Virus record (IMG/VR): IMGVR_UViG_3300046408_000009
Coordinates: 11,047-75,046 of that record
Length of the DNA: 64,000 nucleotides
Reading direction: 5' to 3' (one strand)
Origin: a virus
Taxonomy: Duplodnaviria > Caudoviricetes
The position numbers and the translations under genes were made by a program. Shown piece after piece: positions 10,932 through 46,908 of this stretch. The first letter of the stretch is position 1. Each line of letters opens with the position of its first letter. The notes beneath the pieces were generated by a model that saw nothing but the letters and a program-made list of their open reading frames with translations, was not told the DNA's origin and searched no databases.

Positions 10932-11710
10932 CAGAACCTGGGGTAGACCCAGTCCATGATGACTGGAGGTCCGTTGAATGCGCCAAAGGGTGCCATCGAT
11001 TCGTCAGTCGGACGTTCTCCACCGAGACTGACGATGGCGTTCTGCAAACGCTTGAGTTTATCGTCATACTGTTTCTGCAATTGAGGGTACGGGGACCGAC
11101 CAGAGTTGATTTGTTCTGGGTAGTATCCGAGTTCGACGTTGAGTGCAGCCCCAATTGCCGTGAGATTCGCTGCTTGCAAATAGAGACTTGGTGGAACACT
11201 GGCTTCGGGACCGATGGCGTCCTGCACATCGGAAGCCGCTTGGTTGATAAGTCCCATCACGGCGGAGTCCGTGGGGTTCGTGTACGAATTGAACGTACCT
11301 ACTAACTGACCATTTCTAGTATTGGTTCGAGCACGCAGAATTGCACCCACGTCATCGACACCGGGGGACCATGGATAGACCGACCCTCGAATTTCGCTGA
11401 CGTTCTGTTGAATGGTCTTCGTCATCTCCGCTTGACCGACTCCCGTGGATTTCCACGTGATTTCGATATCGCTAATGAACCCAGTGGTGTCAATCTGGAA
11501 CGAGTACTGGATCAGTGTTTCGAGGGGTGTCGTTACGGTTGTTCGATAGATATACCCAAGTCCCGGCGTGGACGCACCCGTGTACGTGAATGGCCCGTAC
11601 GACGCACCATTGGCGACATACGAGAAGGTGACAACGGTAGGGTCGACTGTTGCGCCCGCCGCAGTGAAACTGACTGTGCTAGTTTCCGGCGTCCCCGCTG
11701 TGTATCCCAT
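10931..11710 (-). CDS. Head-tail adaptor with extra N-terminal beta-sandwich domain
   Basis: The C-terminal half is helical and adaptor-like (TNPTDSAVMGLINQAASDV...YYPEQ). The first roughly 105 aa are beta-rich. Confidence 0.6.
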   Translation of the reverse strand: MGYTAGTPETSTVSFTAAGATVDPTVVTFSYVANGASYGPFTYTGASTPGLGYIYRTTVTTPLETLIQYSFQIDTTGFISDIEITWKSTGVGQAEMTKTIQQNVSEIRGSVYPWSPGVDDVGAILRARTNTRNGQLVGTFNSYTNPTDSAVMGLINQAASDVQDAIGPEASVPPSLYLQAANLTAIGAALNVELGYYPEQINSGRSPYPQLQKQYDDKLKRLQNAIVSLGGERPTDESMAPFGAFNGPPVIMDWVYPRF

Positions 11711-23208: not shown

Positions 23209-24336
23209 TCAGTTCGTTTCGTCGTCGTCGTCGCCCAGAGCATTATCGATATCGGTGTGCGCTTCATCATAGACGGCAACGATTGTCCCACGACAGCGGG
23301 GACCTCCAAGACATTCTGAATATCCACCCTGAGGGTAATCTGCTTCAGCGTCCGCGAGAGTCGCGTAATCGTGCCCGTCAATTTTTTCGCACTCCTCACA
23401 CGTATTTTTGTCGAGAAGTTCTGAACTGTAGTAGGTGCCAGCCGACTGACTGAAGACAGCCATGCGTCCCTGATTCTGCGCTTGGGTGAGTGCCCCACCC
23501 AACATATCCTCCGCGTACGAGGGAGACAGTGACGAGAGGTGATCGCCAACGAGATTCGCCACGTCCTCACCACTGAGTGCGTCGACACCGTAGCGCGTCA
23601 GTGCTTGGGTGGCCGCACTATTGGAAATACTGCGAGCCATTATCTTGCCCATTGCCGCCGACTGTCTCTGCAGAGTTCTAGTGACGTCAGAAGTATCAAT
23701 GGTGGAAAGTTTCAGTCCCTGTCTTTCGGCCTCTAGTTTTGCGTCAACAACAGAACTCTCCATCATTGCGGTCATATGCTTCAGAATCAAATCTTCTCCA
23801 GTGACCGTCGTCATGATCGCAGCGACCTGATCCGCCGATTGATTACTCACTGCATTTTGAATTTGACCTTGCAGATCAAGAATCTGTTGTTCCTTGATGT
23901 CACCCCAGCCATTGAGTAATTTCTGAATTTCGTCTTCCCAGTGTTTTTGCAACGCTTGGAAATCAGTCTTGGCGGAAAGTTCAATCTTGGTAGGGTGACG
24001 GTGACCAACGGGCGGTGGACTACTCGTAGAAAATTGTGGGGGCGGAACTCTGCCAGCCTTAACCTTATCGTCGGGTCGTATGATTTTATCGATCACCCCG
24101 ATGACTTCAAAATAATCCGATCTCGATAACAATCCTTTGGCAAAAAGTGTTTGCACTTCCGACCACGATCCCGGTGGCCCAAATGTGTCATCGGGTTCTA
24201 TTGCAGCGGTAGCCTCCGCTGTTCTTGGTGCACTCGGAACTGGTATCCACGAACGCGCAGCCCACCGCTCACCAAGTTGCTGTACGGTGATCTTTCCCTC
24301 GTTGAGTTCTGCAACGTCGTCGGCTACTTGGGTCAT
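23209..24336 (-). CDS. MuF-like head morphogenesis protein with N-terminal extra domain
   Basis: C-terminal ELLDKNTCEECEKIDG...YPQGGYSECLGGPRCRGTIV. Confidence 0.8.
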   Translation of the reverse strand: MTQVADDVAELNEGKITVQQLGERWAARSWIPVPSAPRTAEATAAIEPDDTFGPPGSWSEVQTLFAKGLLSRSDYFEVIGVIDKIIRPDDKVKAGRVPPPQFSTSSPPPVGHRHPTKIELSAKTDFQALQKHWEDEIQKLLNGWGDIKEQQILDLQGQIQNAVSNQSADQVAAIMTTVTGEDLILKHMTAMMESSVVDAKLEAERQGLKLSTIDTSDVTRTLQRQSAAMGKIMARSISNSAATQALTRYGVDALSGEDVANLVGDHLSSLSPSYAEDMLGGALTQAQNQGRMAVFSQSAGTYYSSELLDKNTCEECEKIDGHDYATLADAEADYPQGGYSECLGGPRCRGTIVAVYDEAHTDIDNALGDDDDETN

Positions 24337-24479
24337 GCGCTTCGATTCGCTGGATTCAATTTCTGGGCTAGTTTTTCTGCGTACGCTGCCCGTTCCTCGT
24401 CAGTCATCTCATTGATCTTCTTGGGCGGCTTCGAAAGAAAAACCAAGGGTTGCTTGTTCGCGTCGTCGTTATCACTCAT
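24333..24479 (-). CDS. 48-aa micro-ORF coupled between the zeta-like gene and MuF
   Basis: My translation: MSDNDDANKQPLVFLSKPPKKINEMTDEERAAYAEKLAQKLNPANRSA*. Overlaps both neighbours; below the ORF-track size cut-off. Confidence 0.7.
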   Translation of the reverse strand: MSDNDDANKQPLVFLSKPPKKINEMTDEERAAYAEKLAQKLNPANRSA

Positions 24480-26067
24480 CTTTTTTCACTCCAGTTCCAC
24501 CTGTGTTTATAGAAGCGAACGTTGATAGGTCCGTAATGGCTATCTGGTCTCGCTCCGCACCAAGTGCTTTTGCAAATTCTAGCGCATTTTCTCCGGGTGG
24601 AATCACCTGAGTTACATCCAAATATGCAAGTCCAGTGTCATTGCCCTTGTCATCAACGGCGTGCCACCCACCCAGGTACATTCCGTCTTCTGCCAATTTA
24701 TCTGCATTTGCAGACATGAACGCATCAATTTGACGACCCATGGGTGACGTGCCGTCTGGACCGATCTCGAATTGATCCGGAGTTGCCGGAATCGCGCCAG
24801 ACGAATGCGGGTCCCCCACGGCTACCGCGTAGGGTCCCTTCCCACTACCGTCACCGGTTCCCGGTGGTAAGTCGCCCGTAAACGGATCAAGGGTGAATCC
24901 TCCATCGGGATCACGAAGATCGTTGCTATGTATTGACGCCAGCGCCCCCGCCGTCGTAGTAACCGGTGCATTGGGTTTCGTGTCCGACACAATTGATCGG
25001 TCGTTGTTAACCAGAATTGCACGATCTACTTTTGGAGAGTTCTCGTCAAATGTCACACGTGGCGGAGTACGTCCATCATCGGTCAGCGGCATATTTGCAA
25101 TAATATTGAGGGGGACAAATCGACCACCGCGCTGATATCGACCAGTGGCGTTCTTAATACTCTCTTCCTTAGTGGCGTCGATAAGGATCATTGTTGTGTC
25201 GTAGTGCTCGTCGGTCACTTCCTTGATTGCATCCCAATATCTGTTGAATTGAGCATTGCTTTTCATCGTTGAGTCAATAGCGATGTTTTTGCTCTGTGCC
25301 GCCGCCTGTTGAACAATCATGCCAGCGACGGTCGACTTCTCGTCCTGTATGAGTGTGCCCACCTCTTCGGGCGATAGCCCCAGGGCACTGTAATCGGGGA
25401 TCATTCCCATGGACTGCATCACCACACCAACATCGTCGGGGTTAGCAACCACGTAACTTTTCGGATCGATACCTAACTCGGTAGCGTGTCCCGGTTGTGC
25501 ATCTTGTCCCGGTCGAGCAGCACTACCGTTGAGAAACGTCGACTTCCCCGCGCCCGGTAGTCCAGCCATGATAAGTAATTTGTGGTCGGATTCGATTCCC
25601 GGTGCGTTCAGAAAAACGTCCGCAACTTTTTGCTGTTGCTCAGTTCTTTCCTTCGTGTACATCCCCACGTGACCCTCAACCATGTCGTAGACGGATCGGG
25701 TGTCGAGTTTTTCTTTCATGCCAATGTTTTGTCGAGCAACAACATCGGTCATGTGTTCTTGTAATTCTTCGGGGGTCATATTCACCAATGCCGAAGATGG
25801 TGTTGGCGCGGGTGCACTATCGCCGCCGCCATCGCCGCCGCCATCGCCGCCGCCATCGCCGCCGCCATCGCCGCCGCCATCACTGGTCCATCGACCGTGA
25901 TCATCACGAGGCTCATCATCGTTGTACTCAGCACGCATATCAAGCAGCAACACCATTGCAGAGATCGTGGAGAAAACTGCACAGATTTCACACGCGTCAT
26001 TGTGAAAGTCAGGGTGGACGCGCTCGCGCATCTCGATGATTTCTGAGGTTGACAGAAGCCTAGGCAT
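24472..26067 (-). CDS. Zeta-toxin-like P-loop kinase fused to a C-terminal SAM-lyase-like domain
   Basis: GLPGAGKST Walker A, NPDD, NIAIDSTM, RYQRGGRFVP (zeta family); N-terminal EPRDDHGRWT plus (GGGD)5; C-terminal GGFT...YAVA...LGGWH...YLDVT...A..LG..RDQIAI.DL. Confidence 0.75.
   Translation of the reverse strand: MPRLLSTSEIIEMRERVHPDFHNDACEICAVFSTISAMVLLLDMRAEYNDDEPRDDHGRWTSDGGGDGGGDGGGDGGGDGGGDSAPAPTPSSALVNMTPEELQEHMTDVVARQNIGMKEKLDTRSVYDMVEGHVGMYTKERTEQQQKVADVFLNAPGIESDHKLLIMAGLPGAGKSTFLNGSAARPGQDAQPGHATELGIDPKSYVVANPDDVGVVMQSMGMIPDYSALGLSPEEVGTLIQDEKSTVAGMIVQQAAAQSKNIAIDSTMKSNAQFNRYWDAIKEVTDEHYDTTMILIDATKEESIKNATGRYQRGGRFVPLNIIANMPLTDDGRTPPRVTFDENSPKVDRAILVNNDRSIVSDTKPNAPVTTTAGALASIHSNDLRDPDGGFTLDPFTGDLPPGTGDGSGKGPYAVAVGDPHSSGAIPATPDQFEIGPDGTSPMGRQIDAFMSANADKLAEDGMYLGGWHAVDDKGNDTGLAYLDVTQVIPPGENALEFAKALGAERDQIAITDLSTFASINTGGTGVKKDE
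25819..25878. repeat. 12-bp tandem repeat (ATCGCCGCCGCC) x5 encoding a GGGD linker
   Basis: Five perfect units read directly. Confidence 0.95.
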
Positions 26068-26069
26068 GG

Positions 26070-27515
26070 CTAACTTTGCAGAAATTCATCCCAGGCGTGT
26101 TGATTCCGTTGCCGTTCGATGTCGCTACGTGACGCAGCGGCCTTCTTTTTCTTAGAGTCAATCGGCGTCGGGGCATCAACTTCCTCTTCCGTGTCAGTAC
26201 TATCCGTTACCGTAGAATCAGCGGCTGCAGGTACGGCAGGCATCGTGGCACTCGGGCCGGGAGGTGTTGGCGTGGTAGGACCGGGATCACTAATCCCCCA
26301 GCGATCCGTCAACCACGTACGCACCTCATCATCGACCACGATGCATCCGGCGTCGACCAGTGCGACAAAATCCGTTGCCGTAATGCGAGATTCCGGGTCC
26401 TCGTCCCACGTAAGCAGAGGTGCATTTTCATCGATACCAAAATTCCAGTCAATCATGTTTTCAACAACGTGCTTATTGGTGGTGTTCTTGTACCATCCTG
26501 CAGTCGCGTCAACACCCATCTTGAAAAAGTCAACAAACGATTCGCCCAACGCGCGTGATCCAGTCTTCGTCTGGCCCAGCAAGGAGAACATTGCTAGAAA
26601 TGCACGAGCCATTTGCGTGTCGTAGTAATCAATGGACGCCATGATGTCAGGAAGGTTTCCGGTTACACCTTGGATACCCAGCGTGCCACCGTTAGGTAGA
26701 CCAACCCCCGCCATCCCATCGGCGCGTGTTGCACGAGCCATGGTCGCGTACTGCATGACGGTTTCCCTCGTCGCACCAAGGGGGGCAGTTCCAACGGGGA
26801 TACCCATACCGAATCGCTCGTTCTTCATAGCGTCCACGCGCAACGCACGGTCCTTCAATATCCACGGCTTGTAGCACGAGCGAAGAATCGATTGACCGGT
26901 CCAGTTCGCGCCCTCACGTCCCCAGATGTACGGAGCAAGAACGTTCGCCGGAATCTTCGGACCCATCTGTGGTTCGCCAGGTCGCGGCCACTGTTGAATG
27001 CTTTCGAGTTCACTGTTCTGTTTGTTGAGATTGATGTTGGAGATCGATTGCGGCATACGCGGTGCGAGTTTCGTCAACTCCCATCTTGTTGCCGATTCGT
27101 TAATCTCTCCCACCGTCTCGAAGAACATGTATCCGTAGACCAATGACAACAACGCGTGTTCAAGGTGCATGTCGTGGTTGAAACGCATGCGCTTACGAGA
27201 AGCCGGTTCATCCACGCCACGGATCGGAAGACCTAACGCAGTTGCAACAAGTTCCGTCACTTCGTCCCGTGAACCATTGGGGTCAATGACCCAACGAGAC
27301 CTGCGGATAGGTAGAAACAACGCCTGCAAGAGTGAATAGATTTGCGCGTCAGTTCGCATGTGATGGTAAATTTTCAACGAGTTTGGCCACCGCAATTCTG
27401 CAACGTTCTCATTAATGTCTGCGGACCAAAGACTCCACGTGATGGGACTGGCGTTCGGGTACCCCACTTCCCTCGTCGGTCCGTCTTCCGTACCTGTTTG
27501 CATTTTGTCCGCCAT
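26070..27515 (-). CDS. Portal protein (Mu gp29 / DUF935-like)
   Basis: YHHMRTDAQIYSLL, GANWTGQSILRSCY, ERFGMGIP, GSRALGESF; follows TerL. Start set at ATG 27515. Confidence 0.9.
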   Translation of the reverse strand: MADKMQTGTEDGPTREVGYPNASPITWSLWSADINENVAELRWPNSLKIYHHMRTDAQIYSLLQALFLPIRRSRWVIDPNGSRDEVTELVATALGLPIRGVDEPASRKRMRFNHDMHLEHALLSLVYGYMFFETVGEINESATRWELTKLAPRMPQSISNINLNKQNSELESIQQWPRPGEPQMGPKIPANVLAPYIWGREGANWTGQSILRSCYKPWILKDRALRVDAMKNERFGMGIPVGTAPLGATRETVMQYATMARATRADGMAGVGLPNGGTLGIQGVTGNLPDIMASIDYYDTQMARAFLAMFSLLGQTKTGSRALGESFVDFFKMGVDATAGWYKNTTNKHVVENMIDWNFGIDENAPLLTWDEDPESRITATDFVALVDAGCIVVDDEVRTWLTDRWGISDPGPTTPTPPGPSATMPAVPAAADSTVTDSTDTEEEVDAPTPIDSKKKKAAASRSDIERQRNQHAWDEFLQS

Positions 27516-27534
27516 TATGGGGTCACAATACCAC

Positions 27535-29097
27535 TCACATCTGCTTCGTGAGTAAATCACCGGTAATCATGGCGTCCAAGTTCGGAGTCATCGCAGTTGG
27601 ACCCTTAGTGGGGACCAGACTATAGACAGCCGCGTCACCACGGTCGGGACTGTTGAGATGACGGGCACGCATCTCGTCCTTACTCTCAACTTGTATCTGA
27701 CCGTGCGAATTTATCTTGTAACGAATCGAGGTGAGTTGTGCAATCAATTCTTCATCATCGGGATCGAGATCAAGACGACCATCTTCTCCCGTACCGCTAT
27801 ATCCAGCCAGCCATTCACGCATTCTCCACCACCACTCACTGCGAGCGTTGAAGAACTTTGGTTTACCCCCCGGCAACACTTCGTCTTCGCTGCATCGCGC
27901 TGACGAGATCAGTGCATGGACTGGATACCCCTCTTCCGTCAAGATGTCAGTCACGCCACCGCCCACCCCCGTATCGTCAATGTTTGCAATCGGGGTATTG
28001 AGGCGACCATTACCGATCATTTGGATGTGACCGGCTAGTTCAGTAACGGGACCGTACGCGATGTCCTTGACCACCCGTAAGTGCCCACCGCGACGTAGAA
28101 CAATGATTGAATGGTCGGTACCGTAGCGAGCAACGTCCACCCCCATCCACGGATCAACGTCGACCGGTGGAATCTCGCGAGCGCACGCCAGAGTCACCAG
28201 GTGCGGGTGGATGAGAGTGTTGTTGGTGACGTTTGGGAATTTTCCACGCACGCGAGACGTGAACAACGGACTGCCAATTCCCCATCGCTTGATACGGTCA
28301 TTCACCCACGACGGCGTCACGAGAAGATCACGCACTTGCGATGGAATGGATTCGGTGCTGGGTTCGATACCCTCACTGATCATGATCGCTCGAACGGCGG
28401 GGTACTTATTCACCTCTTGCGCCGTGAAGTTAGGGCTGCGCAGCGCGTCAGCGTGAATGACGTTCCAACCCGACCCTGGTTGGCAAATCTTCTCGAAGTA
28501 ACTACTGGGATCATCGGGGTTCCCCACCGCCACGATACGGGCGAGATCGTTAGTGGCTAGCGATTCTGCGGCATCAAAAATTCCCTGTGACACTCCGCAC
28601 GCCTCGTCAACGATTACTAATACAAATCTGGCGTGAATTCCCAAGAACGACCCGGCGTCGTAGTCCGCAGGCTTACGACCGTAGGCAACGATTTCATCGG
28701 GACCCGACCCCATATCGAGTTTCCAGACACAGTCGGAAGTCAAACGTCCTCTCAACATACCCTTGCGATGTGCACGAGCGAGTTCCTTCCAAAGAATTGT
28801 TTCGACCTGGGACCACGTCGGTGCGGTCGTCACTACGAATGCTTCGCCCGGTGGGTGGGTCTCGATCCACCACGCAGACAATCGAGACGCCGTAAAAGAT
28901 TTGCCAATCGAGTTGCTGGAGTGTACAACCGTGTGCTTATTTTTCACCACACTGGCAAGGATTTCTCGTTGTTTCTCCGTGGTGTGTTCGCTCAATCGAG
29001 AGTCAATCCACCCCGCTGGGTCGTCAGCGAACGGAGATTTTGGCGGATCAAGTCGATCAGAGAAAATCGAGAGTGGATCGTACGCCTTGATATTCAT
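27535..29097 (-). CDS. terL: Terminase large subunit
   Basis: SNSIGKS Walker A, VIVDEACG Walker B, VGNP, GVDVARYGTD, SPDRGDA nuclease motifs. Start set at ATG 29097. Confidence 0.92.
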   Translation of the reverse strand: MNIKAYDPLSIFSDRLDPPKSPFADDPAGWIDSRLSEHTTEKQREILASVVKNKHTVVHSSNSIGKSFTASRLSAWWIETHPPGEAFVVTTAPTWSQVETILWKELARAHRKGMLRGRLTSDCVWKLDMGSGPDEIVAYGRKPADYDAGSFLGIHARFVLVIVDEACGVSQGIFDAAESLATNDLARIVAVGNPDDPSSYFEKICQPGSGWNVIHADALRSPNFTAQEVNKYPAVRAIMISEGIEPSTESIPSQVRDLLVTPSWVNDRIKRWGIGSPLFTSRVRGKFPNVTNNTLIHPHLVTLACAREIPPVDVDPWMGVDVARYGTDHSIIVLRRGGHLRVVKDIAYGPVTELAGHIQMIGNGRLNTPIANIDDTGVGGGVTDILTEEGYPVHALISSARCSEDEVLPGGKPKFFNARSEWWWRMREWLAGYSGTGEDGRLDLDPDDEELIAQLTSIRYKINSHGQIQVESKDEMRARHLNSPDRGDAAVYSLVPTKGPTAMTPNLDAMITGDLLTKQM

Positions 29098-29107
29098 TGA
29101 CGGAATG

Positions 29108-29683
29108 CTACCGCCTAGCCCCACACCACATTGCAAGTCGCATTGGTTCCGTTCGTACCGCGAGACGAGTACCAAGAAACCCTGCGGCTGCTTGTACCAT
29201 CATGACGTGCGTGGAGCAAATAACGTGATCGCTCCATGACGCGTCGAGTTGTAGCCCAGTTGCGTCGTCAACGATGATCGCGGGATACTCGAACCACCCG
29301 TAATCTGCTCCCGACATCGCGTTATCGAACTGCGCTGCTGCTCTGCGTTGCGTATCGTCAATGTCAAACGACACCACGGCGTACAGCCGTGCTCGATACG
29401 ACTCCAGTGGTCGACGCTCGTACCCCCAAAATCCCATCTCAGAAATCATGGGTACGATTGCGTCGCTGGTCCGGATAACACCCGCGTGCCCGCACCATGT
29501 ATATCCGTCGAGTGCCGGTTCGCGAATAGTTGCAATTTTTTCCGCGTCTTCAATCAACGTCGACGCAATGGTTCCGTGATCCACGAGGATGATGTCGGTG
29601 TCTTTCGGGTTCTCGCAGTGCTGACCTCTCTCGAAAAAACGAACCGTGAGTGGTGGAATAACAAGTTGAAAGTCTTCGTTCAT
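29108..29683 (-). CDS. Permuted papain-like NlpC/P60 amidase (YiiX/YebB-like)
   Basis: His first (WCGHAGVI), then DYGW, then Cys last (VICST). Confidence 0.65.
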   Translation of the reverse strand: MNEDFQLVIPPLTVRFFERGQHCENPKDTDIILVDHGTIASTLIEDAEKIATIREPALDGYTWCGHAGVIRTSDAIVPMISEMGFWGYERRPLESYRARLYAVVSFDIDDTQRRAAAQFDNAMSGADYGWFEYPAIIVDDATGLQLDASWSDHVICSTHVMMVQAAAGFLGTRLAVRTEPMRLAMWCGARR

Positions 29684-45663: not shown

Positions 45664-46908
45664 TCAGTGTTGGGGGTCCGCCGCTTGTGCAATCCGACCT
45701 TCGATAATTGGGTAGTAGTCCTCAGTGATCTCACAGCCCACCCACTCGAATCCTTCGAGGATCGCTGCCGCCGCCGTCGTGCCGGAACCCAAGAATGGAT
45801 CGAGCACTTTGCCACCCGGTGGCGTCACGAGGTTGATGAGGTAGCGCATTAGTGCGAGCGGCTTGACGGTGGGGTGGTGGTTCTTGTCCTCGACTCCAGC
45901 ACTTCGTTCGGACTTGCTGGCTTTAGCGCAATAGAAGAATCGAGCAGCGGAACCATCGTCGTTGTACTCAGTACCCGTTGCTGTCATCCCCCAGCCTTTT
46001 CCATTTGCACCACTGCGCGGTTTACCTTTACGTGACGGTTTTACTGATGGGAATGCGTTGAGCACTTCGTCGCTACCGTCGTGGATGATGTTGGCGGGCC
46101 ATCGGCCCTCCGGCAGTTCATAGCGGGTGGCAGCGCCCTTACTGTAAACTCCGTTTGCGCCAATGGTTCCAACGGTGTGTGGGTTCTTTGCATAAATCGA
46201 ATCATCCTTGGATTCAATCAGTACGCGTGAGGCGTCAATGTTCAGTGCCCCCGTACCATACTCCAAAACGTTCTTCACCACCGTCCCGACGAGGGGCTTC
46301 CGAGCGACGACGATTGGTTCGTGAGCGGGCTTGAGCGCCGTACCCCAGCCTTGCCATTTTTGTGCGTCGGGTGTCGATTCGCCCTTGCGAGTGAGTTGGT
46401 TGTTTGTGTTGTTGTACCCTCCGGCACCATCTGGGTTCATGAACCCAACACCGCTCGCAGGTTTCGATGTGAACTCAACACCAGCCGACTTGTCGATGGC
46501 CTTGGATACGTCCATAGACTTCGGGAACCCCGAGCCATACAGCCACATGATCTGATCGCGTATCTCAAACCCCGCATCCTCGATTGAACTGGCGATTCGG
46601 TGATAGGTTCGCGATCCACCAAACGCGAGCAAGTGACCACCCGGCTTCAAGACGCGCAGGGCTTCGACCCAGAGAGCGACATTATAGGCGATTCCCGAAT
46701 TGTCCCAGGATTTTCCCATAAAGCCGAGTTCGTAGGGTGGATCGGTGACGATGGAATCGACACTGTTAGCGTCGAGCGTCTTTAGTAGAACGAGGCAGTC
46801 ACCCCGGAGTAGTCCTACTTGCAAATGTTGGTCCGGCGGTCCCACCCAAAAATCATCTTCGTCGTACTCGTCAACATCGATCAAAACTGCGGGTTCGTCG
46901 TTCGTCAT
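45664..46908 (-). CDS. N4/N6 DNA methyltransferase (beta class)
   Basis: VTDPPY, LKPGGHL, HPTVKPLALM, VLDPFLGSGTT. Confidence 0.95.
   Translation of the reverse strand: MTNDEPAVLIDVDEYDEDDFWVGPPDQHLQVGLLRGDCLVLLKTLDANSVDSIVTDPPYELGFMGKSWDNSGIAYNVALWVEALRVLKPGGHLLAFGGSRTYHRIASSIEDAGFEIRDQIMWLYGSGFPKSMDVSKAIDKSAGVEFTSKPASGVGFMNPDGAGGYNNTNNQLTRKGESTPDAQKWQGWGTALKPAHEPIVVARKPLVGTVVKNVLEYGTGALNIDASRVLIESKDDSIYAKNPHTVGTIGANGVYSKGAATRYELPEGRWPANIIHDGSDEVLNAFPSVKPSRKGKPRSGANGKGWGMTATGTEYNDDGSAARFFYCAKASKSERSAGVEDKNHHPTVKPLALMRYLINLVTPPGGKVLDPFLGSGTTAAAAILEGFEWVGCEITEDYYPIIEGRIAQAADPQH

Follow-up and report, generated by a model that had tools for sequence, protein, structure and literature searches.

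A modular protein of a phage head module, probably delivered by the capsid, that joins a zeta-family kinase to a previously undescribed phage C-terminal domain

The cargo gene and its product

We analysed a window of 64,000 nucleotides (nt) from a tailed phage (Caudoviricetes), that is, positions 11,047 to 75,046 of the IMG/VR record IMGVR_UViG_3300046408_000009; the viral record is complete (75,046 bp, with direct terminal repeats), the window is a part of it, and all the positions given below are those of the window. In the head module, on the minus strand, an open reading frame (ORF) for a protein of 531 amino acids (aa), hereafter the cargo protein, lies between the genes of a Mu-type portal protein and of a MuF-like minor head protein. 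A first-pass annotation, made by eye on the letters alone, had read this protein as a zeta-type kinase fused to a domain resembling S-adenosylmethionine (SAM) lyases. The features of the gene were the following:

24472-26067, minus strand: cargo ORF, 531 aa, with leader, junction motif, Gly/Asp spacer, kinase and C-terminal domain
25927-26067, minus strand: N-terminal leader, aa 1-47, common to proteins with other cargo
25882-25926, minus strand: junction motif YNDDEPRDDHGRWTS, aa 48-62, with the pattern [RH]D..G[RKQ][WF] that recurs between modules
25819-25881, minus strand: (GGGD)5 spacer, aa 63-83, a perfect tandem repeat of 12 nt x 5.2
24973-25818, minus strand: P-loop kinase of the Zeta_toxin Pfam family (PF06414), aa 84-365, with a conserved helical N-terminal extension
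24487-24924, minus strand: C-terminal domain (C-domain), aa 382-527, of an uncharacterised phage family, with the motifs GGFT, G[FY]AV, GGWH, LD, NQxAIxD and TGGTG

The start ATG lies 2 nt past the portal stop, as the first-pass annotation had stated, and every motif that it had listed is present, namely EPRDDHGRWT (aa 52-61), (GGGD)5 (aa 64-83 for the repeat proper), GLPGAGKST, NPDD, IDSTM and RYQRGGRFVP. The discrete C-terminal domain that it had placed at about 24500-24910 was also found, with the limits given above. Full-length homologues of the cargo protein (P0001-P0004) share 62-69% identity with it.

The kinase

The kinase region matched PF06414 at aa 163-324 (nt 25096-25581) with an E value of 1.6e-12 and 47.7 bits, against a cut-off of 22.3, and AAA_33 was its second, weaker Pfam match. 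In an alignment of 10 sequences, the Walker A motif GxxGxGK[ST] and the residues N209/D211, D265/K269 and R310-Y311...G315-R316 were invariant or at least 90% conserved; their roles (Walker A lysine, catalytic Asp after strand 2, lid arginines) were assigned by analogy with zeta and PezT. Since the Pfam match is above its cut-off and the catalytic motifs are conserved in the 10 homologues, we consider this module likely to be an active P-loop kinase, and the zeta-toxin-type kinase that had been read from the motifs is borne out. It is preceded by a conserved helical extension of about 80 aa.

UDP-N-acetylglucosamine and nicotinamide adenine dinucleotide (NAD) are the substrate precedents in this kinase superfamily. 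The same kinase type occurs in Phrappuccino gp57, which adjoins the major head protein. An epsilon- or PezA-type antitoxin was not found among the flanking genes (the portal gene, the MuF-like gene and a 48-aa ORF without a family match in NCBIfam), no dedicated search for it having been run.

The C-terminal domain

An exhaustive HMMER search with aa 378-531 gave a family of 119 cluster representatives at E <= 1e-3, ranging from stand-alone proteins of 114-150 aa up to polyproteins of more than 3000 aa. The family signature consists of GGFT, G[FY]AV, GGWH, LD, an invariant Ala, NQxAIxD and, often, TGGTG; precisely, G89, W91 and A122 of the C-domain are invariant, and D107, Q131, D136, G13 and T15 are at least 89% conserved. 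No model of Pfam or NCBIfam covers the C-domain, the LPD families of polyvalent proteins included. It was matched by PHROGs 17808 and 3170, both of which are function-less annotations, and its neighbours in the ESM Atlas were nameless viral clusters only (score 0.89-0.90, 72-94% viral).

The AlphaFold2 models of this C-domain and of a compact stand-alone member, P0045, had a predicted local distance difference test (pLDDT) of 95.0 and 94.8, respectively, and both showed the order beta-beta-alpha-beta-beta-alpha-beta-beta with a long central hairpin. With neither model did Foldseek find a match in the PDB at E <= 0.001, and a search of the PDB sequences with the family profile returned nothing (best E 0.19). 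In BFVD there were 19 significant matches, all of them to uncharacterised phage proteins, the top one being named a zeta-toxin-domain protein. The C-domain is a large, phage-restricted and previously undescribed family, with a confident predicted fold that has no clear neighbour in the PDB.

A DNA-binding role for the C-domain was considered and rejected, since the family is acidic (median pI 4.8, net charge -7), which argues against it.

Across the 52 long family members the co-domains were ART, MuF, Zeta, S78 prohead protease, portal, NUDIX and SLT, with MuF in 4 members, the S78 protease in 2 and a portal in 2. In P0028 the C-domain is fused at the C-terminus of a Mu-type portal, and P0122 holds 2H/Acb1-like, C-domain, TopoIB, ART-PolyVal and MuF domains in one protein. 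In the T7-like cyanopodovirus S-CBP42, a Synechococcus phage, the C-domain lies at about aa 594-710 of gp11 (L001:4219-9051), an annotated internal virion protein of 1610 aa, and P60 also holds it within an annotated internal virion protein. Fusions to head proteins are the published basis for inferring head packaging and injected effectors (PMC5512222, PMC9503650).

The stand-alone copies are located among small early-type ORFs, where a function required as infection begins would be expected, and the distribution of the C-domain fits an effector acting early in infection. T4 offers a precedent for stand-alone early genes that coexist with packaged versions: among its ADP-ribosyltransferases, Alt is packaged, unlike the paralogs ModA and ModB (PMC5512222).

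At L011:126-1155, one of the stand-alone genes (P0060) is immediately followed by a DUF7178 gene. The cargo of P0012, a protein with the leader described above, is likewise DUF7178, and two long proteins have DUF7178 fused to the C-domain.

We also considered that the C-domain may be no independent effector and may serve the kinase instead, in substrate binding, targeting or auto-inhibition. The order kinase then C-domain recurs in P0117, of a divergent lineage (Zeta at aa 221-372, C-domain at aa 411-524), and P0075 (2183 aa) and the top BFVD match have both domains too, as a partnership would have it. However, most family members have no kinase, being stand-alone proteins, portal fusions or polyvalent proteins with ART and TopoIB; conversely, the close kinase homologues P0005-P0007 (L005:8001-9587, L006:8001-10208) have the C-domain replaced by a different domain of about 150 aa, and the homologue P0009 ends with the kinase, without any C-terminal domain. 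We regard the partner role as unlikely.

Comparison of the C-terminal domain with SAM lyases

The first-pass annotation had held that the C-domain follows by eye the order of T3 SAMase and is a SAM lyase. The strings of T3 SAMase that it quoted are all found in T3 gp0.3. The by-eye alignment was, however, no better than chance, with z = 0.41 for the segment and z = 0.25 for the local alignment of the whole domain (pairwise alignments with BLOSUM62, z-scores against shuffles). BLASTP of the C-domain against T3 SAMase gave one non-collinear match of 9 residues (E 0.14). A circular permutation, with GGFTLD at the N-terminus of the C-domain corresponding to GCFTID at the C-terminus of T3 SAMase, was considered and rejected, as it rests on this 9-residue match.

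The hidden Markov model (HMM) of the S-AdoMet_lyase family, PF23780, matched T3 gp0.3 at E 5.7e-42, yet it had no match to the C-domain at E <= 1 and matched 0 of the 108 family members searched (56 + 52). Profile and fold comparisons with T3 SAMase and Svi3-3 had been proposed as a check. In hhalign, the trimmed family alignment compared with a T3-type alignment of 13 sequences reached a probability of 0.4% and a score of 14.5, on par with the column-shuffled controls (mean 12.0, maximum 18.5), and the probabilities for the family against T3-type SAMases ranged over 0.4-0.8%. No Foldseek match was significant: in the search of the PDB with the model of this C-domain, 6zm9 was at rank 8 with E 0.2, and in the search with the model of P0045 the top 50 were without a SAM lyase. 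In the fold ranking for this second, independent model, eIF4E and unrelated folds scored higher, with T3 SAMase down to rank 20 and Svi3-3 outside the top 50. Finally, none of the 19 significant BFVD matches is a SAMase. The claim of a SAM lyase is thus unsupported by the HMM, profile-profile and pairwise tests, its fold matches being at noise level and dependent on the model, and the C-domain is not a demonstrable SAM lyase.

The C-domain could still be a very remote or convergent SAM lyase, in which case the injected protein would deplete SAM and so block type I restriction-modification or BREX. The order beta-alpha-beta-beta-alpha-beta within the C-domain is compatible with the ferredoxin-like fold of SAM lyases, and the early-acting lifestyle of the family resembles that of T3 gp0.3. 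In Svi3-3 the SAM-binding residues are Gly56, Tyr58, Glu69 and Gln104 (PMC7877911). In an alignment without statistical support, the residues G89, W91, D107 and Q131 of the C-domain follow one another as these do and fall in comparable elements of secondary structure, and typical family members share with Svi3-3 a spacing of 11 residues from the aromatic to the acidic residue; we take this as a lead, not a test, and the equivalence would require the changes Tyr to Trp and Glu to Asp. We hold this explanation to be very unlikely.

A further claim, that the phage carries three SAM-dependent methyltransferases, was not reproduced: a non-exhaustive scan of 20 ORFs found only one DNA methyltransferase, at 45664-46908 on the minus strand (N6_N4_Mtase, E 6.5e-33).

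Leader, junction motif and spacer

The leader was found at 68-74% identity in proteins of related phages that carry different cargo (P0010, P0011, P0012, P0184 and P0005). At aa 18-29 it has the pattern H-P-[DE]-x-H-x(2,3)-C-x2-C, and because this pattern is invariant in 8 of 8 aligned leader-bearing proteins, a small zinc-binding knuckle is suggested for it. In a search of regions with the leader, the matches were confined to a handful of related phages; the leader is lineage-specific.

The junction motif [RH]D..G[RKQ][WF] is far more general than the leader and lies between the modules of many polyvalent proteins. Polyvalent proteins, including those with ART, TopoIB and MuF domains, had 2-4 copies of it, and in 32 of 122 members of the C-domain family it preceded the C-domain by 10-63 residues. 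PRDxxGRW had been taken for a packaging tag; since it occurs up to four times in a polyvalent protein, and upstream of the C-domain, the peptide reads as a marker of module boundaries and not as a single tag of each protein. Either a processing site or a repeated docking peptide is a plausible role for it. A text search of PMC5512222 turned up no mention of the junction motif, and neither did a full-text literature search for spellings of it. P0005 and P0009 have extra modules between two copies of the motif.

The Gly-rich linkers of the relatives of the cargo protein are shorter and imperfect, and for this reason the (GGGD)5 spacer looks like a recent expansion by slippage.

Gene order and the variable cargo slot

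On the minus strand, the order of the head module is large terminase, portal, cargo ORF, 48-aa ORF, MuF-like gene, two small ORFs, protease/scaffold gene, small ORF and major capsid gene. The genes next to the cargo ORF, with the terminase, were the following:

27535-29175, minus strand: large terminase, at the upstream end of the head module
26070-27560, minus strand: Mu-type portal protein (Portal_Mu, E 3.6e-45; phrog_113, E 3.7e-72), upstream neighbour of the cargo gene
24333-24479, minus strand: coupled 48-aa ORF between the cargo and MuF-like genes, overlapping both neighbours
23209-24336, minus strand: MuF-like minor head protein, downstream neighbour, with weak MuF and SPP1 gp7 matches

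The protease/scaffold protein matched Mu-like_Pro, and the small ORF before the major capsid gene has positional counterparts in related phages with a weak Phage_cement_2 match. In a megablast search, no GenBank phage was matched by the head module. As regards the placement of the cargo gene between portal and MuF, the portal side is firm and the MuF side weaker, the downstream protein matching Phage_Mu_F at E 0.027 and TIGR01641 at E 0.005, both below the cut-offs, and phrog_595 at E 1.6e-10. A Pfam scan found no MuF match within the cargo protein itself, the MuF-like protein being the product of a separate downstream gene.

In related contigs the succession of portal, cargo, small ORF and MuF-like gene is retained, while the cargo differs. 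In two of them (L005 and L007) a further cargo gene with the leader lies ahead of the kinase gene, and L004 has an additional cargo protein of 689 aa (P0183, L004:6419-8488), the first 85 residues of which correspond to the N-terminus of the MuF-like protein of the phage studied here and are followed by a PRDxxGRW junction, a Gly/Asp linker and unrelated cargo. The first 85 aa of the MuF-like protein (24082-24336, minus strand) form a portable leader module.

The translationally coupled 48-aa ORF shares 8 nt with the end of the cargo gene and 4 nt with the beginning of the MuF-like gene. In L004, L005 and L006 the kinase gene is followed by positional homologues of 43-55 aa (23-40% identity), and a counterpart is absent in L008, after P0009. 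The product of the 48-aa ORF could serve the kinase as an immunity or chaperone protein.

This small ORF is relevant to another explanation, in which the cargo protein is not packaged at all and is a late zeta-type toxin neutralised by the coupled 48-aa product, the two forming an addiction, exclusion or lysis-timing module. Small antitoxins classically accompany zeta toxins, and a conserved, translationally coupled small ORF does follow the kinase gene in four related phages. However, the 48-aa ORF has no family match and lies downstream, whereas the epsilon and PezA genes lie upstream, and it is missing after P0009; moreover, an immunity protein and packaging are mutually compatible. The leader, the junction motif and the position among the head genes argue for virion cargo over an unpackaged toxin, and we hold the latter to be very improbable.

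Proposed role

On balance, we think it likely that the cargo protein is a two-module effector of the polyvalent, head-packaged class, made late, loaded into the prohead and ejected with the DNA, in which the kinase is joined to a separate C-domain other than a demonstrable SAM lyase; in particular, the protein is probably delivered by the capsid. Its place in a slot flanked by the portal and MuF-like genes, with relatives that vary the cargo, is in line with the modular head-module protein with a zeta-family kinase described at first pass. As a whole, that description was partly confirmed: the modular, probably capsid-delivered protein and its zeta-family kinase held, and the SAM lyase and the single tag did not.

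According to this proposal, the protein would be made late and loaded into the prohead by way of its leader or its junction motif, as for the T4 capsid-targeting sequence and the effectors fused to MuF or portal proteins. The Mu I-type protease/scaffold protein might cleave it at the junction, and it would then be ejected together with the DNA. In the host, the kinase would phosphorylate a small-molecule or nucleotide-type substrate, and the C-domain would act separately, with a small ligand bound or converted at a pocket formed by the invariant Gly-x-Trp, the Asp and the Gln, on the central beta-hairpin and the following strand.

Some points weigh against this proposal. The presence of the cargo protein in virions, its cleavage and its ejection are steps that we infer from the analysis, and the function of the C-domain is likewise wholly inferred. 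The MuF assignment of the neighbouring gene is under the family cut-offs. The kinase has no close solved relative: its best PDB matches were a deoxynucleoside kinase (E 0.0018) and Pnkp1 (E 0.0055-0.02), and zeta and PezT structures were not retrieved by single-sequence or profile searches of the PDB sequences.

A bolder extension, which we find possible though doubtful, would make the C-domain the founder of a new family of early-acting effectors, present either as stand-alone early proteins or as capsid cargo. The ligand bound or cleaved in its Gly-x-Trp/Asp/Gln pocket would be a host metabolite or immune signal of cationic or nucleotide type, for example SAM, NAD+ or a modified nucleotide. 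The C-domain would then be an analogue or an extremely remote relative of the SAM lyases, and [EH]PRDxxG[RK][WF] would be a general marker of capsid-loaded cargo.

If it is packaged, the cargo protein adds a defined two-module example to the effectors injected with phage DNA. The distribution of the C-domain family (stand-alone early genes, portal fusions, proteins with MuF or a protease, an internal virion protein) is that of known anti-defence and host-takeover modules, and the junction motif could aid the recognition of capsid cargo by sequence alone. Since the pair of an injected kinase and a SAM lyase is unsupported, the immediate value of this protein is as a well-delimited target for biochemistry and not as a new mechanism.

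Comparison with known systems

The polyvalent, head-packaged effectors are an already known class; the C-domain family is described in no database.

As for the phage SAM lyases (T3 gp0.3 and Svi3-3; PF23780; PDB 6ZM9, 6ZNB and 7OCK), the likeness lies in a small alpha+beta sandwich with a long central hairpin, in an action at the very start of infection and in the superficially similar order of a Gly, an aromatic residue, an acid and a Gln. The SAM lyases are homotrimers, their active sites lie at the interfaces of the subunits, and they turn SAM into MTA and homoserine lactone.

With the Zeta and PezT toxins and the AvrRxo1-type kinases (PF06414), the cargo kinase shares an HMM match above the gathering cut-off, the Walker A motif, the Asp after strand 2 and the Arg pair. 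It differs from them in being very divergent and in having the helical N-terminal extension of about 80 aa.

In T4, as is well established (compare PMC9026906), a short N-terminal peptide, the capsid-targeting sequence of IPI-III and Alt, sends diverse cargo to the prohead, where the prohead protease removes the peptide. The concept of a short peptide directing cargo is the same; the two differ in that there is no sequence relation and that the motif of the cargo protein is internal and repeated at several module boundaries.

From the MuF polymorphic toxins the cargo protein differs because their N-terminal MuF domain is not in its polypeptide. Among the polyvalent and head-packaged effectors, zeta-toxin-like kinases have been listed as MuF-fused cargo (Iyer, Burroughs, Anand, de Souza and Aravind 2017, PMC5512222; Iyer et al. 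2022, PMC9503650). The cargo polypeptide departs from this class in having no MuF, portal or metallopeptidase domain, so that its delivery would rest on the short leader and the junction motif. It resembles the class in having at least two effector-type domains in one polypeptide encoded between portal and MuF-like genes, and in its C-domain family, which is found in bona fide polyvalent proteins with ART-PolyVal, TopoIB, 2H/Acb1-like and MuF domains (P0122) and recurs fused to head proteins (the Mu portal in P0028, MuF in P0122 and the S78 protease).

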